Of a stretch of 64,000 nt of DNA, positions 17,215-33,175 are shown piece by piece. The first letter of the stretch is position 1; each line of letters opens with the position of its first letter. The position numbers and the translations under genes were made by a program. The notes under the pieces are model-generated. The model saw nothing but the letters and a program-made list of their open reading frames with translations, did not search any database and was not told the origin of the DNA. Origin of the DNA: a virus; IMG/VR virus record IMGVR_UViG_3300045988_050655; one strand, 5' to 3'.

Positions 17215-17255
17215 AACGGATAAAATACGATTCTCGGATGCTATTTGTATCTTTG
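17215..17255 (+). promoter_or_regulatory. late-type promoter P2: AACGGATAAAA-N22-TATCTTTG
   Basis: Same architecture. 30 nt upstream of ATG 17286, which opens the internal-protein / giant-protein operon. Confidence 0.6.
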
Positions 17256-17285
17256 CCACATTATTAATAATTAAAATACATATAT

Positions 17286-17957: not shown

Positions 17958-17960
17958 CCT

Positions 17961-19073
17961 ATGAAAGCATCAGATATGTTACGACACAATAATGGCTTGA
18001 AGACTACACAGAGTGTACTCAACAAGCAGCAGAGTGGGGTGGATGCTGCCAACAAGGTGGCACAGACTCAGGCTCCAGTCTTCACCCAGCAGCAACTTGA
18101 TGCGGCTGGCAAGAAGGTTGACCAGATGAATGCTGCCACTCCCACCGATGATGCTATGAAGGCGGCTAGGGCTAAGACTATCGCTACTCAGCAAGCTATC
18201 GCCAATGGGGTGGACGTGAATCAGGGAGTGCCAAATGATGAGGAGGATAAACCATCCGTGCCTATCGTGAAGAAGGAGGAGCCAGCAGAACAGCCTAAGC
18301 AGTTGTCTTATGCCGACATGTATAAGATGCTGAATCCTGAGCAGCAGGAGACGGCTGAACAGAGGGCGAACAGAGAGAAAAAGGAGCGTACCAAGGCTCG
18401 TATCGCTGCTCTGGGTGATGGCCTCCGTGCGCTATCCAATATCTACTTCGCTACCAAGGGTGCAAAGGTGGTACACAATCCTGAGTCGGATATGACTAAG
18501 GCGGTGAATAAACGCAAGGCATATATGGATGCTCAGAGAGAGAAGAATCGGGCGGCTTGGCTGGCAGGGTATCAGAGGGCACTCGCTCTTGATGAGGAAG
18601 CTCGGAAGAATAACCTGACTCTCGCTGAGCAGATGAGGTATCACGATAATATGGATAGAGTCAATAGGGCAAAAGTCATGTTAGACCAAATGAGGATAGC
18701 ACAGCAAGATGAATACAATAAGGGTAAATTAAGTAATCAGGAGTCTGCGAACAAAGAAACCGTTAGACATCATAAAGAGCAGGAAAGTACTAGTAAGAAG
18801 AATGCCAACGCTAATGTGACTAGAGCACAAAAGGCAGGAAAAAATAAAGGTGGTTCTTCTAAAGAAAACTATAATAAAACTCTCGCTGGTTTAACTACTA
18901 AAGACCCTAATGGAGTAAGAGCGGTTACTAAGAGTTTGAAACGTGCTGGTGTTCCTCAAAATGCACAGACAATAGTAGAGGCTTACAGAACACAGAATGG
19001 TTCATTCCATGGTGGCGGTTCTACGAGTAACAATAGTCGAGCTAAGCAATTAGCCAAGAAGTATGGATTTTAA
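17961..19073 (+). CDS. putative virion internal protein (low-complexity, K/Q/A-rich)
   Basis: 370-aa ORF immediately upstream of the giant gene. No family recognised. Confidence 0.6.
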   Translation: MKASDMLRHNNGLKTTQSVLNKQQSGVDAANKVAQTQAPVFTQQQLDAAGKKVDQMNAATPTDDAMKAARAKTIATQQAIANGVDVNQGVPNDEEDKPSVPIVKKEEPAEQPKQLSYADMYKMLNPEQQETAEQRANREKKERTKARIAALGDGLRALSNIYFATKGAKVVHNPESDMTKAVNKRKAYMDAQREKNRAAWLAGYQRALALDEEARKNNLTLAEQMRYHDNMDRVNRAKVMLDQMRIAQQDEYNKGKLSNQESANKETVRHHKEQESTSKKNANANVTRAQKAGKNKGGSSKENYNKTLAGLTTKDPNGVRAVTKSLKRAGVPQNAQTIVEAYRTQNGSFHGGGSTSNNSRAKQLAKKYGF

Positions 19074-19084
19074 ATAGTAATATT

Positions 19085-22000
19085 ATGCCAGATAATGTAG
19101 ATAAGTTATTTGAAATAATGCAGGCGAAAGGTGCTGCTAGTGATAGAGGTAAGTTCCGAAAAGTATTCTTGACTCCTGGCAATAAGGGGTATAAGATAAG
19201 AAAGGATATTTATGATGGACTCAGGGCAGACGGCATTATAGATAGTCCAACTTACGAGGATTTTAGACGAAAGCTAAGACTTGGTGGTACTCCAACAGTC
19301 AATAAGTATCGTCAGCAAATGTTTAACTCTGTTGACCCAAACAAGAGCAGAGCGTCAGAACTTACTAATAGAGCGGTAGGTCAGGCTGTAAGGGCAACCA
19401 ACAATGTCCGTAAACCAGTAACCGCAAAGGTTGTGAATCGGAAAGGTAAGCCAATTGGAGAGGAGTTTGCCATTACTCCTGCCAAGACCGTAGAAGACCT
19501 TGATAGGGAGTATGCTCAGGAGACAACAAAGAACTGGGAGAATGAACTGCATGACCAGATGGCTGATGCCGACAAGGATGCAGCAAAGATTAGCGATATG
19601 TTCAAGTCCTTCATCGGTTCTACTGATGAAGTAGGTAGTGTATGGGGTAACATGACTAGAGGTGGCGGTATCGCTGGTACTCCTCATAGTGTTACTACCA
19701 ACAATGGCATCATGGAGAATACAGAAGCTCGACAAATTCTTGCTGCTGGTGATTACAATCGTAAGAGAAGAGAACTCTTGCAGTTGGAGCAGGATTCAAG
19801 AAATGGTGCAATCTTTGACAATCATTCTTTTTTTAGAGGAATGTATGATGCAGCCAAAGATACTGGATTCCTGACTGGCGGTGCATCTGACCTTATCAAT
19901 GCTGGTTCCTTGCTTGCAACCAAGCAGGATTTGGATAATGGTGTCCATACTGAAGCTGGTGATATGCTGATGCAGCAAGCGGTAAAGAATAGTAATGCAC
20001 AGAGTCAGTATGGTGACAATCAGGGATGGATGTACACTGGTGGTGTTATCACTACCAATATGGCTCCTTTTATGGTGCAGATTGGTAGTGCTGGATTTTC
20101 CAAGGGTATGAGTAACGCTATTGGTAAGGTAGTGCAGAGTGCAGCTTCCAAGGTCGCATTGGGTATGATGAATAAGGCAATTGGATTGACAAGTACTCAT
20201 GTCGCAAACATCATAGGTAAAATGACTGGTCTTACTACCAAAGCATTCGGCAAGGCTATCCAGTATGGAATTGTAGGTGCTGCCCAAGCTAATACGGTTG
20301 GTCTTGGAAATGTGGCTAACGATGTGATTAACCGCTATACTGGTCAGGTCTATCAGGATGAGCAGGGCAACTACAAGTTTGGCACATTTGATAGTGATGG
20401 CAATCTTGTGCATGAAGGCGGTGAAGACTTCCTTACTGCTCTCGTAAAGGGTGAGGCGGCTCAGACTATTGAGTTTGCTACTGAGTTGGCTGGCGGTGGA
20501 ATTGATGCTGCTGGTACTGCCCTGAAGAACTTCGTTACCAAAGGTGGCAAGAAAATTATCAACAAGTACAACATGGAGAATGTTTCCAAGGTGATTGACT
20601 TCTTGCTTAATAATAAGGTGGCAAAGAATGCAAGATACTTGAAGGCTGGTGCTGACAGAACTCTTGGCAAGGTTGAAGTGAATAGTATTGTCGGTGAGTC
20701 TCTGGAGGAAGAGTTGGGTATCATCGCCAACACGGTCTTTACTGGTGATAATAAAATCTCAGACTTGTGGGATGAAAAGCAGCAGTCTCAGATATGGGGC
20801 GGCATGCTCTTGTCTATCGGATTGATGAAGGGTGCTGTTGCTCCTTTCCATGCTTATAATGCCAAGCAGTATTATTCCTATAAGCATAAGCTAGACAAGG
20901 CTGATGTGAACTTGTCTCAGTTGCTCGGTAAGGAGAAGTGGGAAGAACTCCGTAATCAGATTGATACTACAACAAACGATGATATGCCTGAAATGGTAAA
21001 CAGAATCAATCGTGATGTTGCTCTTGGTAAGAACAGACAGCCAGTGCGTGAGTATATTCAGAACTTGCTCATCATGCGTGGATATGACATTGGCAACATG
21101 CTTGCTGCAAAGAAGGCAGTTGAAGACAAGGGTGAAGGTGTCTCTGTGAAGAATATGGAGAAGAATCAGGCATACCAGCAGGGTCGTGATGCTTATGGCT
21201 ACGATACTCATGAGATTCAGTTAGACCAAGAAGACAAACAAAAGTCTCTTGCCCAACTTCTCGGTATCTCAGAGCAGCAGTTGGCATCCATGAGTGATGA
21301 GGAACTTGATGCACTCTCTGGTCGTGATGATAATATTGATAGGGCTATCTATGACTACCAGTTATCTACTGCTCGCTATGAAGGTGTGATTGATAATGCA
21401 AGAGACCAGATAGACTTGGAGGTTCAGAGGGCAGCACAAGCGGTTGATATGTACACAGACAAGTCTCGCAATACAATCCGAAATGCTACCATCAAGGCTA
21501 CTGGCGGCTTGGAAGACTATGGTGTTTATATTATTAATGGTAATATCGCTACCCATGAAGATGGTTCCATTGATATTAGTAATAGTGATGATATGATTCT
21601 GTATTATGACCCAACTACCAATACGGTTGAGCATGCTGATGCCATGATGTTTGCTGAACTGGGTAGTGAGGAGAATGCTGATGAAGTGAGAAGTCAGGCT
21701 ATGGCTGATGCCAAGGAGAAGGCTATCAAAGAGACTACTGGTATCATTGATGGTGTTGTAGAGGTAGGTACTCAGTTCAAGACCGTTGATGCAGATGGAA
21801 CAGAACATACTTATGAAGTACTCGCTGATAATGGTGATGGTACTGCCATGATTACTATTGATGGCAACATTCCAACTGAACTTGTCAAGGGTGAGAATGT
21901 AAATATTCCAGTCTCGTTTGAAGAGTTGCAGAAGATGAAGGATGAGTCTGACCAGCAGAGATTGCAAGCGGCAAAGGCTCAGCGAGAACAGATGGAGAAG

Positions 22001-25000
22001 GAGCGTGCTGAGCAGCAAAATCAGGAGACAGAAGAGACTCAACCTTCATTTGACTTCAAAAAGATACTCAATGATAATGGTAACGTGGTGCTTGCTGATG
22101 TACTCGACGAGGATGGCAATACAAGATACCCAAACTCAAAGTTATTTCTCATCCGTGATTCTGGTGCTAAAGCTAAGGTGGTAGAGTTGAAGAGTGATGG
22201 CACTCTTAAATCTCATGCCGTTGATAAGAAAGACGTGAGAACTGCTACTACTATGTCGCTCGATGAATACAAACAAGCTATGGCTGAATCCTCAATGATA
22301 GAGGATAATAGTGGAGAGAATAGAGGTGAGATAGAGGCTGAAACTTCAATAATAGAGGATGCTGAACCAATAGGAACTGGTGCGTTTGGCAACATCTATA
22401 ATCAGTTTAAGGGCAAAGTTAAGGAGGCTTTCAACTTCCTGATGAGTCATAAGAGTGGAGATTTACTTGGTGTCTTCCATCGTGATGATGTTGGAGACAT
22501 TGACCTTGTATGGGGTAACGAAAAGATGGGTTTGGCTCATATCCTTGGAAAGCATGTAGGTGAAGGAAAAGACTTTGAGACTCCAGATGATGCTATTGAA
22601 ATGATTGAGAATGTTATTAATAGCGGTCGTATCTTCCAAGATAATCAGAATCGCTATACATTAATGCTTGATGGTGTAGGTGTAGGTATCAGAAAGAGTT
22701 TCGATGGCGAGAAAAAGAATTGGATTGTGACTGCTGTTGACTTTAATAGAAGTCAAGAAGAAAAAGGAATCGTCACCAATCCCACGTCAACCTCTCATGG
22801 TGTTACTGAGTCAGAGTCTGCTGCTGCGCTCAACGATTCCGATGGCAAAGATATTAATAATTCTGCAAACGACAATGAAAATAATGAAAGTTTAACATTT
22901 GAGGATGGTACTCCTATCCCAGTTGATGAGAATGGAGAGACTGACCTTAGCCAGACTGATGCTGCTCATGCTGCTGAGTGGTATGATAATAACCTCGGTG
23001 AGGATGCTGACGATTGGTTGGATGGAGAAATCAAGAAGGCTAAGAAGGTATTGGAGCAAGCACAGAATAAGAAGGTGACTGGCACTAAGCCTTCTGAGTT
23101 GGTTGCAAGCAAGAAAGAGAAGGAAGCTGCCATTGCTGATGCCCAAGCACATTATGACTCTGCAATCTCTATTCGTGATTCGTTGAAGGAAAGAAGAATT
23201 GCCAAGGAAGAGAATACTGCTGAGGGTAGGAAGGAACTCATTGAGAAGGAAAGAAGAAAGTTCGCTCGCTTGAAGAGTGCGGTGAAGGATGATGCTGAGG
23301 CGGTTGCTCAACTCTATAAGGAGACGGTTGGTTCGTTGCTGCATCGTCTTTACGATGGTACTGGCATTGACGTGACAGATACGATTCCGCTTACTGCTGA
23401 GGAGTATGTGGCTAGTAACCTCGGTGCTCACTCTCTCAACTATGAGGGAACAGAGACAAGCAAGGGTGTTAAGCAGGAGACTGGTTTGAACAGAGAAGAC
23501 TTTGCTAAGACTCAGTTGCTGGCTGCTGATGGCAAGGGAACTACTATTGATAACCTTGTGCATAGTCTGTGGGAGAATCGTCCATCTAACCTTGATTCGC
23601 TCGGCACACAAGAGATTCGTAACGCTTTGCTCAGCGTAATCACTAGCGGTTTCAAGGCATCGGAAGCAAGAAACTATATAGAGAATCTTCGTATTGCTCA
23701 GGCTGAGAACTTCCTTGAAGAGCAGAAGAAGGCTGCTGACAATGCCGCATTCGCTGAGGAGAATAAGGCTGAATCAGAACAACAGACTGAAACGGCTACT
23801 GAATCTGAGGAGAAGACTGGGGAAGACAACTCTGATGAGATTAATGATGAGGATAATGAGAAGATAAATGAGCAGACAAATGAGAATATAAATGCTCCTG
23901 AGGTTCCTGAGGATGCAACGGAAGAGAATCCACTTGGCTTACAACTTAGCGAAGATAAGGTTCCGTTTGAAATTGAAGGAGGAAAGAGCGGTGAGACATA
24001 TAACATAAATGATAATGAAGACAGACAGAGACTTATCAATGACAATAAGGTGGATGATAAGGACATCTTGGATATTGATATGCCTAAACATGTACACAAG
24101 GCTATTAAGGAGTTGTGTAAGAAGATGGGATTGAAGGTTCAGTTCCTTTATATGGGCGCAAGGTCAAATGGTTGGATAGAGAATGGAACCATGTATCTTG
24201 CTCTGGACACAGAGATGGCTACCCAGTTTGTGTTTGGTCACGAAATGACTCATGCAATCAAGCAGAAGAATCCTGAGGCATACAAGGAACTCGTTAAGGT
24301 TGCCATGGCTGTAACGACAAAGAAGAAGTTTGAGGAAGACTTGGCAAAGGTTTACCAAAACTATCATGGTATCTCTGGATATAACAATGTTGATGATTAC
24401 GTTGAGGAGGTTGTTGCTGACAACTTAGGAAAGTTCATTAATAACTTTGACTTGGCACAGAAGTTTTCTCTTCGTCTCAATCATCCTGTATTGGCAACGA
24501 TTCTTCATGCTATACAGAAGATAAAGAGTCTGTTATATGGAGACTTCTACAAGTCTGTAGATGCTTTGGAGCGTATCGTTGAAAAGGCATACGTTGATAC
24601 TGCCAAGGGTGAGGTGACGAACTCTGAGACTGGCGAAGATGTTTCCTTCTCTCTCCGTCAAAAGCCTGAACCTAAGAAGAAGGGCATCGGCTACAAGGTG
24701 TTCGTGTTGAAGGATGGCAAACTCTATCCACCAATGGTAGCGAACCCTGATGGTGCTGCTACTCCAGTAGGTGTATGGCTTGATGCTGATGCGGCTCCTA
24801 TTGCTGGAGAAAGCAAGACTGGCAGACCTCAGGTTAAGCAGGGCGGCAAGGGAACACAAGGCGGTAGCGGTAAGCTAGCCTATAGACCAGGCTGGCATCT
24901 TGGTGTTGTGCCTTATGCTATCCAGTTCAACCGCAAGGATGCTGAGGGAAACAAGACTCTCTTCCCTAAGAACTTTGTCTTCGCTGAGGTGGAGTATGCT

Positions 25001-28000
25001 GCTGATGTTGATTATCAGGAGGAAGCTCGCCAAGAGGGTATCAATCCATCGGGTAAGTATCAGCATTCTCTCGCTGGCTTGAAACATTTGCCTACTGATG
25101 GCTATTATATGTATCGTACCAACCCGAACCCTGAGACTGACCCTTGGGTGATTACTGGTGCGATGAAGGTGAACCGCATCTTGACCAGAGCAGAGCAAGC
25201 AGAACTTGTGAAGAAGACTGGTCGTGAACCTCAGCAGATTCAGGAGGGCGATATTGTTACTGATGATGTTGTGAACAGCATCAATCAGGAGATAGCTGAT
25301 GCCCCTAAGTTCTCGTTGAAAGACCCATTCAAGATGTCTGACAATGAGAAGAAGGAGCGTGGTGATAGACTTATTAAGGCTCCAGCTATTAATGTGGCTA
25401 GTGGTGTCATTCAGAAGACTGCTGACTTGTCTGCAAGAAAGGCTGCTGAAAAGTGGTGGAATGAGAATGTAGCAAAACCTCTCGTCTTCAATACAGAGGT
25501 TGGTGATGTGGAGATTAATGATAAATCTATCAAGGATTCACTTGCTCATAGATACAGACAACCTAAGTTGGATGCCATTACATCATTACCTGATGGATTT
25601 GGAAATGCGGTGTACCTTGGTACAATGAAGGACTTCACTAGGGATGGTGATGTAAACAATCACTATTTCGCTTATCCTATCAATTATGATGGGCAGAGAA
25701 ACTATGTGTTCTGTCGTGCTATGCAGGATGCTAACAAGAATAGATTATATGTGCATGAGGTGTTTGTTGCTGATAAAATAAACGAGGGCAATACCCTTCA
25801 AACCACAGCGTCACAGCCTCATGGAGGTATTGCCCTCTACAAAGAAATTCTTGCGAATGTTCTTTCTGCTGCAAAGATAGACAATTCTTCTGAAACTACC
25901 AAGGAAAATGGCGAAAAGTTTTCATTGAAGGACGAAAAAACTCTTGCAGGAGTGCATAACATTACTGAGGAGAAGCTGAGAAAGGCTTTGAAACTGGGTG
26001 GCTTTGCCAATCCTTCTTTGGCTGTAATTGATACTAACAAGACTGGTCACGACAACTTTGGAGAGATTTCCTTCATCGCTCCTTCTGCCCTTGTAGATAA
26101 GCGTACTGGCAAGACTGCTGGTACTTGGATAACTGATGCCTATACTCAGCGTTATCCTTCCGTAGAACGAGAAATGAGCGAGAAAGGCAGTCAGAAGTTT
26201 AGAGACTGGGTTGATAGCCTTGAATACCCAAGTGAAGCTAAGGCTGAGATTAAGAGACAGGCAGAGGATGCTCTGAGCAACAATAATGCTCCTGCTTGGG
26301 AATTGATGTACTTGAAGGAAAAGGGTATTGACATTAAGGAGTATGATTCAAGAATTGATTATCGCTGGAAAGAAATTATCAAAGACCATCCAACTGTTGA
26401 GGACATTCTGAATAGTATGAATACTGACCCTGAACTGAATGAAAAGGTTACAGGTCTCGCTAAGCATATCATCGTTGACCCTATACGGGGAAAGATTTCG
26501 TTGGAGGTGAGAAGAAAGATATATGAAGAGACTGGTGTTAAGATGAGTTCTCTCAATCCACAAGTAAGAAAACAGACTAAGGAAATCTTTGAGCGTGACT
26601 ATGCGCCAAGTCTTCTTAACAAGAATGGTACACCAAAGAAATCCGATGTAAAGAAGGTTGTTGAACAGATGGTGAAGGAGCACAACGACACAAAGAAGTA
26701 TGACTTCTATCTGTCTAAGGTGAAGGCTAGTAATTACGTCAACAAGAATGGTCTTTATGATGATTACATCAGATGGCAGGAGAACAAACTGGATGAGTTC
26801 GGAACAAAGAACCGTATCTTCCGTGGCTATACTAAGGATGGTTCCAGAAAGTATGTGCCTGAGACTCTTGAAAATGTTTCAAAGGCTATGAGGGAAGAAG
26901 CAGATGGGCAGACCAATGGAAGCGAATATACCTCGTTTGGTAGCTTTATCGCAAAGTTGGCTAGTCGTGTTGATTCTACAGACGAAATGCGTGCCAACAA
27001 GGATAAGTTGTCTTCTAATAAGGATAAGGAAGAATTTTACGAGAAATGGTCGGACGTATATTATGACCTTGCCAAGTTCTTTTATAATGATGTGTTCTAT
27101 GGCGAGCAGAGACTTCACGATATTGTATTGCAGTCTGACCCTAAGAAGTATGCCAAGAAAGAATATGGCATTACCCTTACTCCTACCTTCATGAAGAAGC
27201 TGGATGCCTTGAAGAATGCAGTACAGACAGAGTTGAAGAGTGCGTACTTTGAGACTAAGTACAACAGACCTCTCCGTCTAAACGAGTTTGCTGCTGCCGT
27301 GGTTCCTGATAACTTGGGCGAAGATGTACGCAAGGGAATAGAGAATGCTGGCTTACCAATGTATGACTACGACCCGAATAAGGAAGGTGACCGCAGCCGT
27401 GCCTTCAATGAAGCTATCAATAGTAGAGACAATATCAAATTCTCTCTGAAATCTATGATGGCGAAACCTGAGGGATGGAAACAAGCCAACAAGAAGGCTA
27501 TACATATTGCAGAAGCTATTGAGCGTGACCCTAAGTTCTCCTTGAAGAACCTTGATGGAACTCTCATTAAGGCTGGAACATATTTTAGCGGTGGCGGTCT
27601 TGTTGAGGAAGGTTTGAAGGGTATCATCGACCCAGTGGTGGCAGTTGAGTATGACGAGAAGATAAGCGGTGTTTATCGCAACAACTTCGGGCAGCACATC
27701 GTTACTGCTGATGTTCGTGATGTTGACCCAAGAGAGTTGGTTAAGCTGATTGATGGCGAGGTAGAGTACTTCCATGCCAGCCCAGTCTGCAAGAACTACT
27801 CTCAGGCAAAGAGTAACCATGCTGAGGTGGAACTTGACAAGGAGACTGCTGCTAGTACTGCCGAGTTCATCAATGCTATCAATCCAAAGGTGGTGACAAT
27901 CGAGAATGTGAAGGGATATAAGGATTCGGATGCCATGAAGACTATTACCGATGCTCTGGATGCCAACGGCTACACTTGGGATGCAGATGTGTATAACGCT

Positions 28001-31000
28001 GCTGACTATGGCGGCTACACCAACCGAGAGAGATTGATTGTCCGTGCGGTTCGTGATGGCAAACTCCCTGAAAAGCCAAAGAAGATGGCACGCAAGAGCG
28101 GATGGTATGAAGCTGTGGCTGATATTATCCCGACCCTGACCGAGAAGAAGAATGGTGTGGCTCCTTGGATGGATATTCGATTGAAGGCTGATGGCATTGA
28201 CTGGCGAAACATTGACAAGCCATTATATGTGATGGGTAGTGCCTATGCTGACGGAAAGGTTCCTCATGCCTTCGCTGATGAACTGCTGCCTACACTCCGA
28301 ACCAAGAGCGGTGATGTGATTGTGATGCCTGATGGCAAGGTATATCGTGCCATGGGCAGAGTGCTCGCTAGAGTATCAGGAGTGAGCGATGATTACAAGA
28401 TGCCATTCTCTGAGAATCTGAGCCATACCATCATCGGCAACGGAATCCCTACTCAGTTGACCGAGCATGTTATTGCTCCTCTGCTTACTGGCTCCGACCC
28501 TAAGTTTAGCATCCGTACCTATCACGGCACTGGTGCTAGCTTTGACAAGTTCGATTTATCTCATGCCTTGGAAGGCGAGGGAAGTGAGAGCTTCGGTCAT
28601 GGTGTGTATGTTACCAACTCTAGCAAGATTGGACGTGAGTATGCCCAGAGAGCAAAGAATAGAAAGATGGAAGACCTCTATAAAAATATGCGCTACCCTG
28701 ATGGGGTGAAGGGCGATATTTTCAAGAGAAGAGTCTTTGGTGAAATGGTGAACGATGTGGCTACTGGCGGTAGTGTGGCAAGTGCCAAGGAGTTTGCCAA
28801 GAAACGTGTCGGTGCTGATGCCAATGATATTCAGCGTACCCTTGAAAACTTGAAGGATAGAGAGAAGGGAACTGAGTATGAACAGAACTTGAAGGATAGA
28901 CTTGCAGAGTATAAAGAAGGCTTGAAGTGGATTGATTCTCTTGATGAAGATTATCTTACCCAAGGGAACGCTAACAGATACGATGTGGATATTCCTGATG
29001 ATAACGGTGAAAATTACCTTGGATGGAATGAGTCTCAAAACTTCCCATTGGAAAAATGGTACAGACTATGGGAAATAACTCATGAAGGGTTTAATGAAAA
29101 CGAGTATTTCAAAGATGGTGGAGCGAGATATGATATAGATAGGATTGAGCGTATCACCCAAATGAAACTTGAATCGCCAGAGAATGGTATGCAGAGACTT
29201 CCTACATTAAAAGGTGAAGCATTGTATCATGCTTTGGAAGACTTCTTCAACCGTGAAAGACCTTCGTATGGTGCAGAATTAGCATCAAGGGCTTTGAGTG
29301 AAATAGGTTTTGTCGGTATCAAGTACCCTGCTGGAATGATTCATGGCGGTGCTGAGGAAGGAGATTACAACTATGTGATATTCGATGAGAACAATGCCAA
29401 TATCGTGGGTAATACCCGATTCTCCTTGCGCTATGACCAGTTTGAACACGACTTGAACCAGTGGAAGAAGGATAATAATCTGCCTAAGGATGCCCAGCGA
29501 CCAACCATCCCACAACGCAACGCTGGCGAGAGTGCTGCTGCATTCTTGAAGAGAGTGGATGAGTACCGCAAGCAGATGGCTCTTTGGAAGACTGCTCCAA
29601 CATACGAGCAGCATCTTCTGAGTGATGATACTGCCCTTGGAGAGTTCAACCGAGAGTTGCAGCGTGGTTCCGTGCTGAAACGTATCGCCTTCCAAGATAG
29701 TATGCTGGCTATCCGCAAGGCTCAGGAAGCTATCATGAAGGAAGTTGGTGTTGACCGCCTGAATATGGCTGAGGATGCCTATACTGCCGAGAACCGGAGT
29801 CACGGCAAGGGAAAGAATGAGTTTGAGGAGTACAATAATGAGTTCTTGCAGCCATTGAGAAAGGCTTATCACCAGATGAAGAAGATACTTGGTGATAGCT
29901 ACGATAATGTCCGTATCTACATGATGGCTAAGCATGGCTTGGAGCGTGATGCCCAGATGGCATTCAAGAAGTCACTGGATGCTGACTTTGAGGATGTGGC
30001 TCAGAGAAGTGCGGCATACAGGGCTTACAAGGGCGATATGAACCGTATTACCAATGATAGCGATTTGGAGTTTGGAAGAGTGGATTTCACTACTTGGAGG
30101 CAGAGAGATAATGCTCTCAGAACGAAATATTCTCCTTCCTATATGGACTATCGTTATGATGAGAATGGTATCGCCTACGATTATTCAGGCTTGTCGGCTC
30201 TCTTCGGTGGCTCTGACTTTGAGGAAGCTGCCCACAAACTGGTAAGGGATATTGAGAGTAGTCATGTAGCTGAGGTGCAAGACCTCTGGAATGCTACGAA
30301 TGCGGCTACCAAGAAGATTCTCCGTGATGGCTATAAGGCTGGTATGATGAGCAAAGATACTTATCAGTATGTGCGAGATATGTATAGCCATTATATTCCT
30401 CTCCGTGGCTGGGATGGCACTACTGCCGACCAAGTATGGGACTATATTGGTGGTGGCAAGGGTGCGTTCAATCAGACCTTGAAAACGGCACATGGACGAA
30501 CCTCTATTGCTGATGACCCTATCGCCTACATCGAGAATATGGCAGAAAGTGGAATCCTGCTGAACAACAAGAACTGGGTGAAGCAACACCTGATGCTCTT
30601 GGCTCAGAATCATCCAACTTCCCTGCTGACCCTGAGCAAGGCTTGGTACGTGAAGAGTACGGATGCCAACGGCAACGAGGAGTGGATTCCTGCTACACTT
30701 CAGATTACTTCTCATATGAATAGCAATCAGGTGAAGGCTGCTATTGATGCTTTCGAGCAGAAGATGGAGAATATGGCGCAGACTGGCGATGCTACCCAGC
30801 AGAGAGAAGGCTTGAATATTGCCTATCCTCAGACTCATAGCGAGGAGAGAGAACATGAGGTAAGAGTGATGAAGGATGGCGAGGAGTATATTATCTATGT
30901 GAATGGTGACCCTCAGTTGGCTCAGGCGATGAACAATACCAGAGCACACCGAGTGAGAGAAATTCAGAGCGGCAAACTGGATAGGGCTGCTGCTTGGTTG

Positions 31001-33010
31001 GGCAGAAAGATGGCTGCTGCCTATACCAGTCTTTCACCTCTCTTCATCCCTTCCAACTACTTCCGAGACCTGACCATGACGCTGGCATCTACCGCTATTC
31101 GTGAGGATGGAAAATACAACTATCTGCTCAGAAAGAATCTGGCTACCTCTTGGAATCTCGGTTTCATGTTGAGAGACTATCAGAATGGCAAGTTGAGAGA
31201 GAAGGTAAGCAACGGAAACGCTACTCCTAAGGAACAGATGTTCTATGACTTCATGATGAATGGTGGCGAGACTGGCTTTGTATCTTCACTTGATGTGGAA
31301 GACTTGAAGAAGAAATTCAAGAATGACTTGAAGGATTTGGATAGATGGAAGGCGAACCCAGTTAAGGTTGGGCACACCATCATGGATGGCATTGAGTTCC
31401 TGAACAGAGCAATCGAGGATAGTAACCGATTTGCGGTTTACATGACCTCTATTCAGTATGGACGTTCCATTGATGAGGCTGTGAATGATGCCAAGGACGT
31501 TACCCTGAACTTCAACCGCAAGGGTACTGGCGAATACGGCTGGCAGATGGTTAGAAATCTCTATCTCTTCATCAACCCAGCGGTACAGAGTTTGCAGACT
31601 CTTGGTGCGCTTGCCAAGCATCATCCTTTCAAGTTCACGGCTGTTACTGCATCATGGTTGGTGAGTGGTGTGCTGGTTCCTATCGTTAACGCTGCCCTGA
31701 TGAGTCTGTTGGGCGGTGATGATGATAAGGATAAGTACTGGCAGTTCACCAAGTGGGATAGACGAAACAACCTTATCATGTGGGTTCCTACTACTCATGA
31801 GTTCGTGAAGATTCCGCTTGCTCAGGAGTTCCGTGCTTTCTATGGAATAGGCGATATGATTGCATCCAAGATGATGGGTGGCGAGTTGGCTGAGGAGAGT
31901 TGGAGTCAGTATGCAGAAGACTTGCTCGGTCAGGTGGTGGATATGCTTCCGCTCGACCCGACTGGATATGACGGCAATATTGCGGTCAGCCTGATGCCGA
32001 ATGCTATTCGCCCAGTCTTTGAGTTGGCTTTCAATGTTGACTTCACTGGCAAGCCATTATTCAAGGAGACAGAGTATAACAAGTATGACCCGAACTTTAC
32101 CAAGGCATACGTGGGTACTCCTGATTGGTTGGTTCGTGCATCCAAGATGGTTAACTCAATCGGAAACGACTATCCTGATGTGCAGCAGAACAGCATTGAT
32201 GCTTTCGGTGACCCAAGATACAATCTGAATAACCCTGCTGTGGTTGACCATGTATTGTCTTCTTATCTCGGTGGTGCTTACACCATGGGCAGTCAGGTGC
32301 TCGGTGTTCTTACCAAGTCACTCAACGACCCGAAGGAAATCAAGGTGGCTGATATTCCATTATTCAGCAAGTTCGTCAGCAATCCTGATGATAGACCGGT
32401 TACTAAGAAACAAGGTGATGAGTTCTGGAATATGAAGGAGAACCACGACCGTGCAGCCAATACCCTGAGCAAGTTGAAGAAACAAGCTAAGGTGGATGGC
32501 GATTACTCTATGCTGGAGCGGTTCTACGGCTCAGAGGAGTATAAGCAGTATAAGCAGGATGATGTGAAGGTGAAGAAGTATGAGGAAGACAAGAAGAAGG
32601 AACGTGCTGAGGAGAGTGGGGAGGAGTATAGACCTAACAAGTTGAATGCCGAGGATATATATAAGGCTCATGCTACTCCGAAGGATGATTTCGAGGACTT
32701 GAAACTGAAACAACTCTACACTAAACTGAACGGATTCAAGACTTCCTATGACCTCTTGGTTGATACGGCTCCTAGTCAGAGCGATGCCTACTACAACACC
32801 AACAAGTCTGCCATTGATGCCATTGACGAGATTTCCCTTGATAAGCAGGAGATTTCCGAGTTGAAGAAAGGTTTCTTGGATGATGGCAAGGATGCCTACA
32901 ACGCTGAGGACATGAAACAGATTCGTGAACTGAGAAAGAAGATTCTTGCTGTACTGGAGAAGGCTAACAAGGTAGTTGTGGCTAACCAGAAGGCGAAGAC
33001 TGAGAAGTAA
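19085..33010 (+). CDS. giant polyvalent protein (4,641 aa) with zincin peptidase, C5 DNA methyltransferase and ART-like modules
   Basis: Uninterrupted 13.9-kb ATG ORF. For motif coordinates see the three domain features and the findings. Confidence 0.9.
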   Translation: MPDNVDKLFEIMQAKGAASDRGKFRKVFLTPGNKGYKIRKDIYDGLRADGIIDSPTYEDFRRKLRLGGTPTVNKYRQQMFNSVDPNKSRASELTNRAVGQAVRATNNVRKPVTAKVVNRKGKPIGEEFAITPAKTVEDLDREYAQETTKNWENELHDQMADADKDAAKISDMFKSFIGSTDEVGSVWGNMTRGGGIAGTPHSVTTNNGIMENTEARQILAAGDYNRKRRELLQLEQDSRNGAIFDNHSFFRGMYDAAKDTGFLTGGASDLINAGSLLATKQDLDNGVHTEAGDMLMQQAVKNSNAQSQYGDNQGWMYTGGVITTNMAPFMVQIGSAGFSKGMSNAIGKVVQSAASKVALGMMNKAIGLTSTHVANIIGKMTGLTTKAFGKAIQYGIVGAAQANTVGLGNVANDVINRYTGQVYQDEQGNYKFGTFDSDGNLVHEGGEDFLTALVKGEAAQTIEFATELAGGGIDAAGTALKNFVTKGGKKIINKYNMENVSKVIDFLLNNKVAKNARYLKAGADRTLGKVEVNSIVGESLEEELGIIANTVFTGDNKISDLWDEKQQSQIWGGMLLSIGLMKGAVAPFHAYNAKQYYSYKHKLDKADVNLSQLLGKEKWEELRNQIDTTTNDDMPEMVNRINRDVALGKNRQPVREYIQNLLIMRGYDIGNMLAAKKAVEDKGEGVSVKNMEKNQAYQQGRDAYGYDTHEIQLDQEDKQKSLAQLLGISEQQLASMSDEELDALSGRDDNIDRAIYDYQLSTARYEGVIDNARDQIDLEVQRAAQAVDMYTDKSRNTIRNATIKATGGLEDYGVYIINGNIATHEDGSIDISNSDDMILYYDPTTNTVEHADAMMFAELGSEENADEVRSQAMADAKEKAIKETTGIIDGVVEVGTQFKTVDADGTEHTYEVLADNGDGTAMITIDGNIPTELVKGENVNIPVSFEELQKMKDESDQQRLQAAKAQREQMEKERAEQQNQETEETQPSFDFKKILNDNGNVVLADVLDEDGNTRYPNSKLFLIRDSGAKAKVVELKSDGTLKSHAVDKKDVRTATTMSLDEYKQAMAESSMIEDNSGENRGEIEAETSIIEDAEPIGTGAFGNIYNQFKGKVKEAFNFLMSHKSGDLLGVFHRDDVGDIDLVWGNEKMGLAHILGKHVGEGKDFETPDDAIEMIENVINSGRIFQDNQNRYTLMLDGVGVGIRKSFDGEKKNWIVTAVDFNRSQEEKGIVTNPTSTSHGVTESESAAALNDSDGKDINNSANDNENNESLTFEDGTPIPVDENGETDLSQTDAAHAAEWYDNNLGEDADDWLDGEIKKAKKVLEQAQNKKVTGTKPSELVASKKEKEAAIADAQAHYDSAISIRDSLKERRIAKEENTAEGRKELIEKERRKFARLKSAVKDDAEAVAQLYKETVGSLLHRLYDGTGIDVTDTIPLTAEEYVASNLGAHSLNYEGTETSKGVKQETGLNREDFAKTQLLAADGKGTTIDNLVHSLWENRPSNLDSLGTQEIRNALLSVITSGFKASEARNYIENLRIAQAENFLEEQKKAADNAAFAEENKAESEQQTETATESEEKTGEDNSDEINDEDNEKINEQTNENINAPEVPEDATEENPLGLQLSEDKVPFEIEGGKSGETYNINDNEDRQRLINDNKVDDKDILDIDMPKHVHKAIKELCKKMGLKVQFLYMGARSNGWIENGTMYLALDTEMATQFVFGHEMTHAIKQKNPEAYKELVKVAMAVTTKKKFEEDLAKVYQNYHGISGYNNVDDYVEEVVADNLGKFINNFDLAQKFSLRLNHPVLATILHAIQKIKSLLYGDFYKSVDALERIVEKAYVDTAKGEVTNSETGEDVSFSLRQKPEPKKKGIGYKVFVLKDGKLYPPMVANPDGAATPVGVWLDADAAPIAGESKTGRPQVKQGGKGTQGGSGKLAYRPGWHLGVVPYAIQFNRKDAEGNKTLFPKNFVFAEVEYAADVDYQEEARQEGINPSGKYQHSLAGLKHLPTDGYYMYRTNPNPETDPWVITGAMKVNRILTRAEQAELVKKTGREPQQIQEGDIVTDDVVNSINQEIADAPKFSLKDPFKMSDNEKKERGDRLIKAPAINVASGVIQKTADLSARKAAEKWWNENVAKPLVFNTEVGDVEINDKSIKDSLAHRYRQPKLDAITSLPDGFGNAVYLGTMKDFTRDGDVNNHYFAYPINYDGQRNYVFCRAMQDANKNRLYVHEVFVADKINEGNTLQTTASQPHGGIALYKEILANVLSAAKIDNSSETTKENGEKFSLKDEKTLAGVHNITEEKLRKALKLGGFANPSLAVIDTNKTGHDNFGEISFIAPSALVDKRTGKTAGTWITDAYTQRYPSVEREMSEKGSQKFRDWVDSLEYPSEAKAEIKRQAEDALSNNNAPAWELMYLKEKGIDIKEYDSRIDYRWKEIIKDHPTVEDILNSMNTDPELNEKVTGLAKHIIVDPIRGKISLEVRRKIYEETGVKMSSLNPQVRKQTKEIFERDYAPSLLNKNGTPKKSDVKKVVEQMVKEHNDTKKYDFYLSKVKASNYVNKNGLYDDYIRWQENKLDEFGTKNRIFRGYTKDGSRKYVPETLENVSKAMREEADGQTNGSEYTSFGSFIAKLASRVDSTDEMRANKDKLSSNKDKEEFYEKWSDVYYDLAKFFYNDVFYGEQRLHDIVLQSDPKKYAKKEYGITLTPTFMKKLDALKNAVQTELKSAYFETKYNRPLRLNEFAAAVVPDNLGEDVRKGIENAGLPMYDYDPNKEGDRSRAFNEAINSRDNIKFSLKSMMAKPEGWKQANKKAIHIAEAIERDPKFSLKNLDGTLIKAGTYFSGGGLVEEGLKGIIDPVVAVEYDEKISGVYRNNFGQHIVTADVRDVDPRELVKLIDGEVEYFHASPVCKNYSQAKSNHAEVELDKETAASTAEFINAINPKVVTIENVKGYKDSDAMKTITDALDANGYTWDADVYNAADYGGYTNRERLIVRAVRDGKLPEKPKKMARKSGWYEAVADIIPTLTEKKNGVAPWMDIRLKADGIDWRNIDKPLYVMGSAYADGKVPHAFADELLPTLRTKSGDVIVMPDGKVYRAMGRVLARVSGVSDDYKMPFSENLSHTIIGNGIPTQLTEHVIAPLLTGSDPKFSIRTYHGTGASFDKFDLSHALEGEGSESFGHGVYVTNSSKIGREYAQRAKNRKMEDLYKNMRYPDGVKGDIFKRRVFGEMVNDVATGGSVASAKEFAKKRVGADANDIQRTLENLKDREKGTEYEQNLKDRLAEYKEGLKWIDSLDEDYLTQGNANRYDVDIPDDNGENYLGWNESQNFPLEKWYRLWEITHEGFNENEYFKDGGARYDIDRIERITQMKLESPENGMQRLPTLKGEALYHALEDFFNRERPSYGAELASRALSEIGFVGIKYPAGMIHGGAEEGDYNYVIFDENNANIVGNTRFSLRYDQFEHDLNQWKKDNNLPKDAQRPTIPQRNAGESAAAFLKRVDEYRKQMALWKTAPTYEQHLLSDDTALGEFNRELQRGSVLKRIAFQDSMLAIRKAQEAIMKEVGVDRLNMAEDAYTAENRSHGKGKNEFEEYNNEFLQPLRKAYHQMKKILGDSYDNVRIYMMAKHGLERDAQMAFKKSLDADFEDVAQRSAAYRAYKGDMNRITNDSDLEFGRVDFTTWRQRDNALRTKYSPSYMDYRYDENGIAYDYSGLSALFGGSDFEEAAHKLVRDIESSHVAEVQDLWNATNAATKKILRDGYKAGMMSKDTYQYVRDMYSHYIPLRGWDGTTADQVWDYIGGGKGAFNQTLKTAHGRTSIADDPIAYIENMAESGILLNNKNWVKQHLMLLAQNHPTSLLTLSKAWYVKSTDANGNEEWIPATLQITSHMNSNQVKAAIDAFEQKMENMAQTGDATQQREGLNIAYPQTHSEEREHEVRVMKDGEEYIIYVNGDPQLAQAMNNTRAHRVREIQSGKLDRAAAWLGRKMAAAYTSLSPLFIPSNYFRDLTMTLASTAIREDGKYNYLLRKNLATSWNLGFMLRDYQNGKLREKVSNGNATPKEQMFYDFMMNGGETGFVSSLDVEDLKKKFKNDLKDLDRWKANPVKVGHTIMDGIEFLNRAIEDSNRFAVYMTSIQYGRSIDEAVNDAKDVTLNFNRKGTGEYGWQMVRNLYLFINPAVQSLQTLGALAKHHPFKFTAVTASWLVSGVLVPIVNAALMSLLGGDDDKDKYWQFTKWDRRNNLIMWVPTTHEFVKIPLAQEFRAFYGIGDMIASKMMGGELAEESWSQYAEDLLGQVVDMLPLDPTGYDGNIAVSLMPNAIRPVFELAFNVDFTGKPLFKETEYNKYDPNFTKAYVGTPDWLVRASKMVNSIGNDYPDVQQNSIDAFGDPRYNLNNPAVVDHVLSSYLGGAYTMGSQVLGVLTKSLNDPKEIKVADIPLFSKFVSNPDDRPVTKKQGDEFWNMKENHDRAANTLSKLKKQAKVDGDYSMLERFYGSEEYKQYKQDDVKVKKYEEDKKKERAEESGEEYRPNKLNAEDIYKAHATPKDDFEDLKLKQLYTKLNGFKTSYDLLVDTAPSQSDAYYNTNKSAIDAIDEISLDKQEISELKKGFLDDGKDAYNAEDMKQIRELRKKILAVLEKANKVVVANQKAKTEK
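24062..24455 (+). other. zincin-like metallopeptidase module of the giant protein
   Basis: HExxH 'GHEMTHA' (HEMTH at 24239-24253) in a 'YLALDTEMATQFVFGHEMTHAIKQ' context. Confidence 0.7.
27572..28490 (+). other. C5 DNA methyltransferase module of the giant protein
   Basis: Motif I FSGGG 27584-27598, motif IV SPVC 27779-27790, motif VI ENV 27902-27910, motif VIII TNRER 28019-28033, motif X GNGIP 28436-28450. Confidence 0.85.
28502..29430 (+). other. ADP-ribosyltransferase-like module (ART-PolyVal/DUF3990-like) of the giant protein
   Basis: 'TYHGTGASFDKF' (YHGT 28520-28531), 'FGHGVYVT', a long helical insert, and terminal 'NYVIFD' (29369-29386). Assigned by pattern memory only. Confidence 0.5.
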
Positions 33011-33022
33011 TACATATATGAC

Positions 33023-33055
33023 TATCCCCTGAAAGTGCTGGGCTTTCGGGGGATA
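33023..33055 (+). terminator. 13-bp GC-rich hairpin after the giant gene (terminator-like, weak U-tract)
   Basis: TATCCCCTGAAAG-TGCTGGG-CTTTCGGGGGATA. Confidence 0.55.
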
Positions 33056-33175
33056 ATTGCTTTCAATCTGAAACTTTTTTCCTATTTTTCTTGTGTAAAT
33101 CTATCAATCTGTAAGTGTTTATAAAGTTTAACTATTAAAAATATCCTAAATTGTTATGCTTCCATTATTTCTTTT

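Follow-up and report, generated by a model that had tools for sequence, protein, structure and literature searches.

The locus analysed here raises the question of what a single open reading frame of 13.9 kb does among the morphogenesis genes of a phage. It lies in a window of 64,000 nucleotides of viral DNA (IMG/VR record IMGVR_UViG_3300045988_050655), and its boundaries as given in the initial annotation were reproduced by an ORF scan, which found 4,641 sense codons without a break on the plus strand (19085..33010), beginning with ATG. The chance of such a run is about 6e-127, given the base composition of the window. All motif coordinates of the initial annotation were recovered exactly when the positions were recomputed. 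The scan of the whole protein placed five families above the Pfam curated cut-offs: DNA_methylase (E 1.4e-27, 97.5 bits against a cut-off of 22), LPD38 (E 5.3e-23, 82.5 bits against 27), PBECR5 (E 2e-19, 70.9 bits against 25), PBECR1 (E 1.3e-16, 61.4 bits against 27.6), and LPD3 (E 1.4e-11, 45 bits against 27). With these domains above threshold, the product is a polyvalent protein sensu Iyer et al. 2017, as had been proposed, and adds one more member to an extensive, previously known family of anti-defence proteins carried in virions. The overall polyvalent concept was published in that study (PMC5512222), and the earlier reading of the locus is essentially textbook. We consider it likely that this phage-type polyvalent protein has a second role in the particle of a temperate Prevotella/Bacteroidales phage, where it would be the largest of the internal-virion (ejection) proteins.

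The surroundings of the gene include an integrase, an anti-repressor, a tail fibre, a large terminase, a portal, and an SU10-type major capsid protein. The source is a temperate Prevotella/Bacteroidales-type phage with an SU10-type capsid. The giant gene is part of a cassette in the morphogenesis region, beside virion genes, as is expected of polyvalent proteins:

17248..17255, plus strand: TATCTTTG, a putative Bacteroidetes-type -7 promoter element, 30 nt 5' of the first cassette ATG
17286..17957, plus strand: cassette gene 1, 223 aa with a hydrophobic N-terminus, resembling T7 gp14 by a sub-threshold Pfam match
17961..19073, plus strand: cassette gene 2, a 370-aa low-complexity basic protein, at the position of BKO1-TP3 gp56
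19085..33010 including the stop codon, plus strand: cassette gene 3, the 4,641-aa polyvalent protein, a single ORF

The Bacteroides -7 consensus is TAnnTTTG, and we take the octamer at 17248-17255 to be a Bacteroidetes-type element of this kind. It occurs 17 times in the window, compared with 3.8 +/- 2.2 copies expected, and several copies stand directly 5' of ORF starts. Both genes that had been described as preceding the giant ORF are present. Residues 4-177 of the gene 1 product align to positions 5-178 of the 187 in the Pfam T7_gp14 profile (PF24072), nearly its full length, with E 9.8e-6 and 26.0 bits, below the cut-off of 27; the protein is 50% identical to gp57 of phage BKO1-TP3, encoded at the same cassette position. 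The gene 2 product is 31% identical over 124 aa to BKO1-TP3 gp56, again at the same position, and matched no family in Pfam, PHROG, or NCBIfam.

The giant protein itself is built of conserved N- and C-terminal modules that flank a variable middle of ~2,400 residues. The conserved parts are as follows:

19778..22129, plus strand: conserved N-terminal scaffold module, aa ~232-1015, collinear with BKO1-TP3 gp55 and BS-TP4 gp3
29582..32644, plus strand: conserved C-terminal scaffold module, aa 3500-4520, containing LPD38 (phrog_14770, E 2.5e-139)
31631..31717, plus strand: single transmembrane-like helix, aa 4183-4211, directly 5' of LPD38
31730..32362, plus strand: LPD38 (PF18857), aa 4216-4426

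The N-terminal module is common to many giant metagenomic relatives, at 26-81% identity. It matched nothing in the PHROG search, and its LPD14 match is weak (18.5-19 bits against a cut-off of 27). The description of the N-terminal third of the protein as Gly/Ala-rich and hydrophobic did not hold in that form: a Gly/Ala-enriched stretch is contained in this module at aa ~200-600, where G+A amounts to 21-24% as compared with 14-17% in the rest of the protein, and this stretch is not membrane-like. The C-terminal region was correctly described as having one transmembrane-like helix. The helix segment FKFTAVTASWLVSGVLVPIVNAAL was confirmed at 31628-31699, and aa 4183-4211 form the sole strongly hydrophobic part of the protein, the only one with a 19-residue mean hydropathy above 1.5. 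The position and hydrophobicity of the helix are kept in 41 of 47 homologues despite sequence divergence.

The C-terminal module has tblastn matches in 337 phage records, including Bcep22, DC1, Ralstonia, Stx, and Vibrio phages, and 34 of its columns are invariant among 47 sequences. More than 4,100 open codons stand 5' of it in 40 of 48 genome loci. By sequence comparison, this module of ~1,000 residues is common to all giant 'DarB-like' virion proteins, and LPD38 is listed by Iyer et al. 2017 as restricted to phage-type polyvalent proteins (PMC5512222). The AlphaFold model of the module (pLDDT 76.7, pTM 0.72) gave 84 matches in BFVD, the highest TM being 0.72; as a rule these are final fragments of giant phage proteins, alongside a few shorter stand-alone proteins. 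The Foldseek search of the same model against the PDB gave nothing at E below 1; the T7 and P22 ejection proteins are expected to be among the solved structures.

Indirect evidence for packaging comes from relatives of this C-terminal module and from the likeness of the gene 1 product to T7 gp14. Bcep22 gp75, JC1 gp69 (its orthologue), and the Ralstonia 'DarB-like antirestriction' giants of Lessievirus and relatives are of similar size (4,515-4,602 aa), carry the homologous ~1,000-aa LPD38 module as well as an LPD3 domain, and have two smaller virion-protein genes directly 5' of them. Mass spectrometry of CsCl-purified virions identified JC1 gp69 by 51 unique peptides, along with the products of the two genes before it (PMC9144972). 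By analogy, the 4,641-aa protein is probably carried in the virion too. The nearest homologue with proteomic support is ~23% identical, and the similarity is confined to the C-terminal module: the alignment with Bcep22 gp75 is limited to aa 3729-4442. Outside it the two proteins differ. Bcep22 gp75 begins with an SLT transglycosylase and further contains an Eco57I-type N6A MTase and an SNF2/ResIII helicase, all absent from the present protein, which has C5 MTase, ART, zincin, and PBECR modules; Pfam reports none of the latter in Bcep22 gp75. Pfam and PHROG searches with the whole protein found no match to Eco57I/N6_Mtase, SNF2, ResIII, or Helicase_C, and no SLT, lysozyme, or other peptidoglycan hydrolase domain was matched by Pfam in the whole protein and its tiles or by PHROG.

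Closer in host and gene order are BKO1-TP3 and BS-TP4, isolated temperate gut phages of Bacteroides (PMC12694917) and thus of the same host order, whose giants gp55 (5,553 aa) and gp3 (5,391 aa) follow the same succession of a small gene and a ~370-aa gene. Their N-terminal modules are collinear with the present one at 26-27% identity and their C-terminal modules are 31-34% identical. Only these two modules are shared; the cargo is entirely different, that of BS-TP4 gp3 consisting of ddrB-ParB, InPase, and a Strawberry-notch-type helicase. In both phages the portal gene lies directly 3' of the giant, whereas here it is 18 kb distant. A term search of the article (Gut Microbes 2025) brought up no text on the gp55 and gp3 proteins.

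A functional analogy can also be drawn with T7 gp14-gp15-gp16, likewise three consecutive genes of rising size, of which the first here is gp14-like. In both cases the largest product presumably passes through the envelope along with the DNA. Unlike in T7, where gp16 has a peptidoglycan hydrolase, no transglycosylase domain is present in the giant, and the gp14 match falls 1 bit under the cut-off. Pfam and PDB sequence searches gave no gp16-type likeness of the giant either. Because the model of the C-terminal module matches no solved structure, the ejectosome analogy draws on gene order and one sub-threshold gp14 match.

The variable middle holds the presumed cargo, part of which consists of predicted RNases and of domains known from polyvalent proteins or phage protein clusters:

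22475..22750, plus strand: PBECR1 (PF18809), a predicted metal-independent RNase, aa 1131-1222
24662..25264, plus strand: 'domain X' (phrog_30118), aa ~1860-2060, widespread and highly conserved
25433..25750, plus strand: LPD3 (PF18798), aa 2117-2222
25931..26428, plus strand: PBECR5 (PF18814), a predicted RNase, aa 2283-2448
26552..27532, plus strand: linker module, aa ~2490-2816 (phrog_22978, E 1.4e-10)

Two modules recalling BECR-type nucleases had been suggested from the sequence. The first, at 22365-22760, is PBECR1, which has tblastn matches in polyvalent proteins of Helicobacter prophages. The second, at 25322-25915, was ruled out as a BECR nuclease: Pfam identifies it as LPD3, and PBECR5 lies 3' of it. 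Domain X (E 1.9e-33 to phrog_30118) has neither a Pfam family nor a PDB relative. More than 110 of 120 homologues among the matches listed cover this domain only, many of them as stand-alone proteins of ~300 aa, and in relatives this stretch stands out as an island, with nucleotide identity of 94-96%. The profile phrog_22978, which the linker module matches, is of unknown function and spans 3,513 positions; close relatives carry LPD23 at this place, and the tile scan gave no Pfam match for the linker of the present protein.

The initial annotation also proposed a zinc protease, a cytosine methyltransferase, and an ART-like module. Profile searches recovered the MTase in the whole protein and brought ART-PolyVal to 31.0 bits in a tile against a cut-off of 31.2, and no peptidase profile matched. 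The features concerned are these:

24062..24634, plus strand: zincin-like metallopeptidase domain, aa ~1660-1850, with H1719-E1720-x-x-H1723 and E1775 (EEVVAD)
24239-24253, plus strand: HEMTH motif, aa 1719-1723
27584..28474, plus strand: C5 MTase domain (PF00145), aa 2834-3130
27584-27598, plus strand: MTase motif I, FSGGG
27779-27790, plus strand: MTase motif IV, SPVC
27902-27910, plus strand: MTase motif VI, ENV
28019-28033, plus strand: MTase motif VIII, TNRER
28436-28450, plus strand: MTase motif X, GNGIP
28499..29431, plus strand: ART-PolyVal-like module (PF18760) of ~310 aa, aa 3139-3449, with H3147 and Y3175
28520, 28595, and 29369-29386, plus strand: ART-like motifs YHGT, GHGVYVT, and NYVIFD (the last at aa 3429-3434)
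aa 3299-3308: invariant-type motif YDVDIPDDNG of the ART-like module

The HEMTH region is a probable zinc protease, as judged from conservation and a structural model. An exhaustive phmmer search with the region returned 229 cluster representatives, mostly of 2,000-6,200 aa. In 148 homologues H1719 is kept in 145 of 146, E1720 in 146 of 146, H1723 in 146 of 147, and E1775, a glutamate 52 residues downstream of HExxH, in 148 of 148. The AlphaFold model (pLDDT 87.3) shows a helix (9-21), three strands (25-29, 37-40, 43-47), the HExxH helix (53-69), and then a helix bearing the Glu (110-125), a topology that agrees with the MPTase description of Iyer et al. 2017 (PMC5512222). Pfam scans, MPTase-PolyVal included, that extended to E 1 recognised no peptidase in the whole protein, its tile, or 10 short homologues. 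The best peptidase match in the PDB profile search was neprilysin at E 0.28, the model gave nothing in Foldseek against the PDB, and hhalign found nothing in a comparison with the N-terminus of N4 vRNAP.

The full C5-MTase motif set is in place, with motifs I, IV, VI, VIII, and X in order. The domain matches phrog_116 (E 5.5e-42) and can be aligned through all motifs with residues 36-314 of M.HhaI, an alignment in which C2902 coincides with the catalytic Cys. Motif IV has Val in place of the usual Pro before this Cys; the SPVC form is kept in 18 of 18 homologues, and all five motifs are retained in homologues down to 42% identity. The methylase is found in only one of 47 loci sampled. Between giants whose backbones are 45-49% identical elsewhere, the MTase cassette is 95-98% identical. 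In some close relatives the MTase or ART module is interrupted by a stop codon or a frameshift, so these modules may be dispensable.

The module at 28499..29431 is a probable ADP-ribosyltransferase of the H-Y type, to judge by its motifs and profile matches. PF18760 scores 26.5 bits in the whole protein and, as noted above, just misses the cut-off in the tile (E 5e-7). Among ten scanned homologues the scores range from 26 to 37 bits, four lie above the cut-off, and one homologue additionally matches the PARP catalytic domain; most of 38 ART homologues have a precomputed PF18760 match. Only profile positions 7 to ~100 of 140 are matched, and the C-terminal half is unmatched in all homologues. 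Of the catalytic residues implied by the YHGT...GHGVYVT...NYVIFD pattern, the H (H3147) and the Y (Y3175) stand, each at least 90% conserved; the D of NYVIFD is not conserved. The third catalytic position has two candidates: D3302 in YDVDIPDDNG, which is Asp/Glu in 14 of 16 sequences, and D3434 in NYVIFD, which is Asp in only 7 of 14.

In the explanation that we favour, the three-gene cassette (gp14-like protein, 370-aa partner, and giant) would be expressed from the Bacteroidetes-type promoter, and the giant would be packaged in the capsid and exit with the DNA at infection. The N-terminal module (aa ~232-1015) and the C-terminal module (aa ~3500-4520, with the helix and LPD38) would serve incorporation and translocation. 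The 2,400-residue middle may serve as interchangeable cargo, weakening host defences during the first minutes. Beside the two PBECR RNases, LPD3, and domain X, this cargo would include the zincin-like peptidase, which probably cuts the polyprotein into working pieces, the C5 cytosine methyltransferase, which would shield phage DNA from restriction, and the H-Y-D type ADP-ribosyltransferase, which would modify host targets.

The timing of methylase action, which we infer to follow entry, can be read differently. The gene lies in the late/structural region, and the protein would therefore accumulate during DNA packaging; it might be packaged as a scaffold while its enzymes do most of their work in the producer cell, at a late stage of infection, the fusion reflecting late co-expression only. 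The C5 methylase, for example, would then modify progeny DNA before packaging, like ordinary phage orphan methylases. Its lack of a helicase/translocase sets it apart from the DarB-type dyad tied to entry protection (PMC5512222), and its near-identical cassette in divergent giants behaves as a self-contained mobile methylase gene. We nevertheless find this account unlikely: it leaves the fusion of RNases and an ART to a virion module unexplained, LPD38-type polyvalent proteins occur in virions of Bcep22-like phages (PMC9144972), and Iyer et al. 2017 argue for the delivery of polyvalent proteins (PMC5512222).

Alternatively, the protein may be essentially structural or ejection-related, with the enzyme-like modules as decayed, inactive passengers. 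This would fit the sub-threshold ART-PolyVal with its unmatched C-terminal half, the atypical VC for PC of MTase motif IV, the zincin recognised by no profile, and the stops or frameshifts that relatives tolerate inside the MTase/ART module. Catalytic signatures would be the first to vanish under decay, yet 145-148 of the 148 zincin homologues retain the H, E, H, and E, the MTase motifs persist in distant homologues, and the ART H and Y are highly conserved, which makes such decay very improbable. Hardly any weight can be given to a polyprotein that would stay in the cytoplasm as an anti-defence factor or toxin, never enter the capsid, and be encoded among structural genes incidentally: the family has no known capsid-targeting signal, but isolated Bacteroides phages have the same three-gene cassette, a gp14-like gene is the neighbour, the homologous C-terminal module occurs in virion-proven JC1 gp69 (PMC9144972), and in prophage morphogenesis regions this module invariably forms the end of a giant ORF.

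The giant resembles the phage-type polyvalent proteins of Iyer et al. 2017 (PMC5512222): a single chain unites ART, MTase, metallopeptidase, PBECR RNase, and LPD domains, and its gene neighbours the virion genes of a portal-terminase phage. The MTases of that study are N6-adenine enzymes of the EcoKI/TaqI-like kind that with few exceptions come joined to LPD36 and an SF2 helicase, and the word 'cytosine' occurs in its reference list only (PMC5512222). Here, by contrast, the MTase is a C5 cytosine enzyme without a helicase, and the zincin is missed by MPTase-PolyVal and other peptidase models. P1 DarB and T4 Alt are alike in concept, as capsid-borne enzymes that protect incoming DNA (DarB) or ADP-ribosylate host proteins (Alt). 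They are separate proteins, an N6A MTase with helicase and an R-S-E type ART, respectively, unlike the C5 MTase and H-Y-(D) type ART fused in one chain here. If the methylase is particle-delivered, the DarB idea of protecting incoming DNA would extend to cytosine methylation, and delivery of a C5 cytosine methylase by the virion would count as a novel form of anti-restriction.

Genes for relatives are present in at least 259 species-level genomes, the majority from gut and rumen Bacteroidales, and nearly all of them lie within ORFs of more than 4,000 residues. The suggestion that the architecture is undescribed stands insofar as no describing paper was found; near-identical architectures are present in public metagenomes and one Prevotella MAG. 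The searched literature yielded no experimental study of giant polyvalent proteins from Bacteroidales phages. It is conceivable, but we would put it forward only tentatively, that the cassette defines a distinct ejection apparatus, widespread among Bacteroidales phages, whose largest protein is a modular carrier: scaffold modules of ~800 aa (N-terminal) and ~1,000 aa (C-terminal) would enclose cargo swapped by recombination, with the C5 methylase and domain X among the cassettes seen, and the zincin would free this cargo once delivered. Three modules are nominated for activity testing: the new zincin clade, the C5 methylase with the unusual VC motif, and the H-Y-type ART with the conserved YxVDIPDDNG motif. 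Delivery of the methylase in the particle would bear on gut phage host range and on the engineering of Bacteroides and Prevotella phages. Giants of this type occupy about a fifth of the genome in these phages, and the present one provides a clean map of conserved scaffold versus swappable cargo.

The region 19085..33010 (+) forms a single unbroken ORF of 4,641 codons with an ATG start; the probability of so many consecutive codons without a stop is about 6e-127 at the base composition of the window. All motif coordinates reported for this ORF in the initial annotation were exactly reproduced:

24239-24253, HEMTH
27584-27598, FSGGG
27779-27790, SPVC
27902-27910, ENV
28019-28033, TNRER
28436-28450, GNGIP
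between 28520 and 29386, YHGT, GHGVYVT and NYVIFD
31628-31699, hydrophobic helix

The multidomain nature proposed for the product was borne out when the entire protein, as well as tiles of it, was scanned with Pfam against curated cut-offs. Five families scored above them, and the PHROGs profiles added three further matches:

aa 1131-1222, PBECR1, 61.4 bits (cut-off 27.6), Pfam
aa 1870-2047, phrog_30118, PHROGs
aa 2117-2222, LPD3, 45 bits (cut-off 27), Pfam
aa 2283-2448 (from 25931), PBECR5, 70.9 bits (cut-off 25), Pfam
aa about 2490-2816, phrog_22978, PHROGs
aa 2834-3130, C5 DNA_methylase, 97.5 bits (cut-off 22), Pfam
aa 3536-4513, phrog_14770 (a 3,427-position family), E 2.5e-139, PHROGs
aa 4216-4426, LPD38, 82.5 bits (cut-off 27), Pfam

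The second stretch taken for BECR-like (25322-25915) turned out to be LPD3, with PBECR5 starting directly after it, at 25931. The N-terminal third had been described as Gly/Ala-rich and hydrophobic; the Gly/Ala enrichment was confirmed at aa about 200-600 only, but the hydrophobicity was not, and the segment aa 4183-4211 is the sole strongly hydrophobic one in the entire protein. A membrane or tape-measure-like role of the N-terminal third was ruled out, as this part contains no hydrophobic segment and gives no PHROG match.

No Pfam peptidase family matched the HEMTH region, the corresponding tile or ten short homologues. The profile search against PDB gave only noise (neprilysin, E 0.28), Foldseek of a good model against PDB retrieved only helical-bundle noise, hhalign found no match to the first 1,000 residues of N4 vRNAP, and tblastn found none in 50,697 phage records. 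An exhaustive phmmer search with aa 1601-1870 against 1.84 billion representatives yielded 229 relatives, most of them 2,000-6,200 residues long. In the alignment (n=148) H1719 is conserved in 145/146 sequences, E1720 in 146/146, H1723 in 146/147 and E1775, which sits in the motif EEVVAD, in 148/148. The AlphaFold model (pLDDT 87.3) comprises an N-terminal helix, three short strands, the HExxH helix and a later helix with the Glu, the topology described for polyvalent-protein metallopeptidases by Iyer et al. (PMC5512222). The domain is zincin-like by signature and modelled topology only and, judging from these searches, belongs to a clade outside Pfam coverage.

The methylase module aligns to residues 36-314 of M.HhaI, and its catalytic Cys (C2902), ENV, RxR and GN motifs all fall in register. 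In motif IV (SPVC), a Val takes the place of the Pro that normally precedes the Cys. This form is present in all 18 methylase homologues collected, at identities down to 42%, and is therefore a family trait rather than decay. The methylase could act in the producer cell before packaging or in the new host on entry.

The ART-PolyVal match at aa 3144-3241 scored 26.5 bits when the whole protein was scanned; in a 443-residue tile it rose to 31.0 bits, with the cut-off at 31.2. A search with aa 3138-3451 retrieved 38 homologues, most with a precomputed ART-PolyVal match; the 38 include a dozen stand-alone proteins (274-371 aa) spanning the entire module of ~310 residues. Among the homologues scanned, scores ranged from 26 to 37 bits (4/10 over the cut-off), one also touched the PARP catalytic model, and in every case the match to the 140-position profile ended after about its first 100 positions. 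The module profile found no match among PDB sequences. H3147 in YHGT and Y3175 in GxGxYVT are conserved in at least 90% of the aligned sequences, in agreement with the first two residues of the H-Y-D configuration given for the ART-PolyVal clade by Iyer et al. (PMC5512222). The Asp of NYVIFD (D3434), proposed as the third residue, fared worse, being Asp in just 7/14 sequences and replaced by Asn or Lys in the remainder; D3302, in the near-invariant Y-x-V-D-I-P-D-D-N-G, is a better conserved acidic position. In view of the partial profile coverage and the scores near the cut-off, we call aa ~3139-3449 ART-PolyVal-like, with D3302 and D3434 as candidates for the third catalytic residue.

Between the zincin-like domain and LPD3 lies domain X (24662-25264, aa about 1860-2060), a highly conserved stretch of ~200 aa that over 100 database clusters share at 50-60% identity. 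Its sole match was phrog_30118 (function unknown), and no PDB relative was found. The domain occurs also in stand-alone proteins of ~300 aa on bacterial-size contigs and in fusions with DUF4406, Peptidase_S78_2 (XkdF-like) and a PF15644 domain.

The C-terminal module (29582-32644) is a conserved part of the protein. The alignment of 47 homologues (27-93% identity) contains 34 invariant columns, many of them polar or charged (PLRG, GR, H, RD, NGGETG, E...R, AK...NFN..G). Such invariance exceeds that expected of a purely structural helical module, and the module could house an unrecognised catalytic or ligand-binding site. The hydrophobic helix aa 4183-4211 has drifted in sequence, but its position and hydrophobicity are retained in 41/47 homologues. 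The AlphaFold model of aa 3500-4520 (pLDDT 76.7, pTM 0.72) had no match in PDB by Foldseek, and homology to solved ejection proteins such as T7 gp15/gp16 was rejected on this ground, with the functional analogy kept. In BFVD the model found 84 matches at E up to 0.001, with TM reaching 0.72 across about 1,000 columns. The majority correspond to the final fragment of a phage giant, alongside a few shorter stand-alone proteins; the partner domains named include lytic transglycosylase, RelA/SpoT and methylase. We infer that the N- and C-terminal modules serve incorporation and translocation.

Megablast of 17000-36000 against the 50,697 phage records gave no nucleotide match, and tblastn with the C-terminal 1,141 residues matched 337 phage records. 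The best relatives were the Bacteroides temperate isolates BKO1-TP3, BS-TP4 and BF1-TP2 (31-33% identity), followed by Ralstonia, Burkholderia (Bcep22, DC1), Stx-converting and Vibrio phages, whose matching proteins carry the annotation 'DarB-like antirestriction'. BKO1-TP3 gp55 and BS-TP4 gp3 have 5,553 and 5,391 aa, respectively; in the paper on these isolates, a term search found no text about their giant proteins. In pairwise comparisons the Bacteroides phage giants share with the window protein a collinear N-terminal block (aa about 232-1015) and a block at their C-termini (aa about 3500-4476 of the window protein), whereas the cargo of BS-TP4 gp3 (ddrB-ParB, InPase, Strawberry-notch-type helicase) is unrelated. 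With Bcep22 gp75 the window protein has only its aa 3729-4442 in common, and the gp75 cargo (SLT, Eco57I-type N6A MTase, SNF2/ResIII helicase, LPD3) is again unrelated to that of the window protein. The Bcep22 orthologue, JC1 gp69 (4,515 aa), was detected by 51 unique peptides in CsCl-purified virions, as were the products of the two preceding genes (PMC9144972). The C-terminal module is homologous to virion-proven proteins.

A scan of one genome per GTDB species revealed 259 loci with the C-terminal module, mostly in Bacteroidales MAGs, the closest being that of uncultured Prevotella sp. UMGS1787 (contig USJX01000001.1, 93% identity). At least 9 kb of upstream sequence was available for 48 loci, and in 40 of these the frame ran open to the locus edge (>4,100 codons); a giant fused gene is therefore the rule. 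The cargo varies. Among 47 such loci, ART-like modules occur in seven and domain X in nine, and the C5 methylase, or the set of zincin, methylase and ART, in one, the closest Prevotella locus. The full set is present also in six giants of the metagenome-derived library (P0193, P0194, P0195, P0197, P0202 and P0203). Giants with a zincin domain at just 45-49% identity to the query carry a methylase cassette that is 95-98% identical at the protein level. Nucleotide comparison showed blocks of 92-96% identity with replaced segments between them. The part that runs from the methylase to the small genes behind the C-terminal module (27527-37448) is 92-95% identical in several Prevotella-associated contigs (compared in L003, L005, L009 and L012), the 5' two-thirds of the giant gene are replaced or just 74-89% identical, and domain X forms an island of 94-96% identity within otherwise mosaic relatives. 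The protein has conserved ends and a variable middle, and the pattern of these alignments is that of cassette mosaicism within a single ORF.

In some close relatives, 91-98% identical in the C-terminal module, the giant gene is interrupted in the region corresponding to window 27900-29000:

L005, 9952-10001, one in-frame TAG in the middle of the C5 methylase (Lys in the window)
L003/L004, 9994-10001, one in-frame TAG in the ART module (Glu in the window)
L009/L010, L009:9940-10040, 1-nt deletion in an A-run of the ART module

What looks like a fourth break is a run of 100 N at a scaffold gap. Amber recoding or read-through was rejected: searches of the window and loci L001-L005 yielded no suppressor tRNA, one lesion is the A-run deletion, the match list that yielded these relatives held only proteins of at most 1,690 aa and was thereby enriched for broken genes, and the genome sample with 40/48 open frames, which was unbiased, shows intact giants to predominate. 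The breaks in L003-L005 and L009/L010 probably represent sporadic inactivating mutations, a hint that particles can form without the methylase and ART cargo.

The element is a temperate tailed phage, and the giant gene stands among the following landmarks:

7839-8732, Ant-type regulator (anti-repressor gene)
12065-13318 (-), integrase
39273-43106 (-), tail fibre
44438-46666 (-), large terminase
48464-50005, SU10-type major capsid protein
51173-53209, portal
in the window, RNase H and HNH endonuclease

The giant gene comes third in a tight three-gene cassette. The first gene (17286-17957) encodes a 223-aa protein with a Gly/Ala-rich hydrophobic N-terminus that matches Pfam T7_gp14, an internal virion protein family, near end-to-end, at 26.0 bits (cut-off 27); no family was found for the second (17961-19073). 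Bacteroides phage BKO1-TP3 encodes a counterpart of each in the equivalent position (50% and 31% identity, respectively). A gp14-like first gene in a Bacteroidales phage suggests a T7-like ejection-protein cassette.

In the proposed mechanism the giant protein would be packaged and exit with the DNA. Its incorporation and passage would depend on the end modules, and the conserved helix may insert in the membrane. The zincin would cut the giant chain into units, after which the RNases would target host RNA, the ART host proteins and the methylase phage DNA. The protein fits the phage-type polyvalent proteins (PMC5512222) on all features testable from sequence. The N6A-MTase/helicase dyad and the SLT domain were sought in it and are absent, therefore it is not DarB-like in the strict sense. 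It would work like the T7 gp16-class ejection proteins in the proposed function, although homology to them is not demonstrable.

The polyvalent-protein concept itself has been published (PMC5512222). New are the C5 cytosine methylase as cargo, as the main text of that 2017 survey describes N6A MTases only, the zincin clade and domain X, both without curated families, and, for Bacteroidales phages, an explicit layout of scaffold and cargo.

The Bacteroidetes -7 promoter element has the consensus TAnnTTTG. The octamer TATCTTTG at 17248-17255, 30 nt upstream of the first ATG of the cassette, is consistent with it. This octamer occurs 17 times in the window versus 3.8 expected, for example at 13760, 17248, 34202, 37503, 53561 and 54108 (+) and at 17157 and 44050 (-). 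Several copies lie immediately 5' of ORF starts, including the divergent pair 17157(-)/17248(+). A sigma-70 promoter scan upstream gave no enrichment, as expected for a Bacteroidetes host. The only tRNA of the window, tRNA-Met (CAT) at 7151-7228 (-), is situated among early/regulatory genes near the anti-repressor gene. Gene order at the giant gene differs between the window and its relatives, e.g., L006 with an inverted block, and the DUF7841 protein, encoded downstream of the portal in the window (53598-54083), has homologues near the giant gene in L003-L007.
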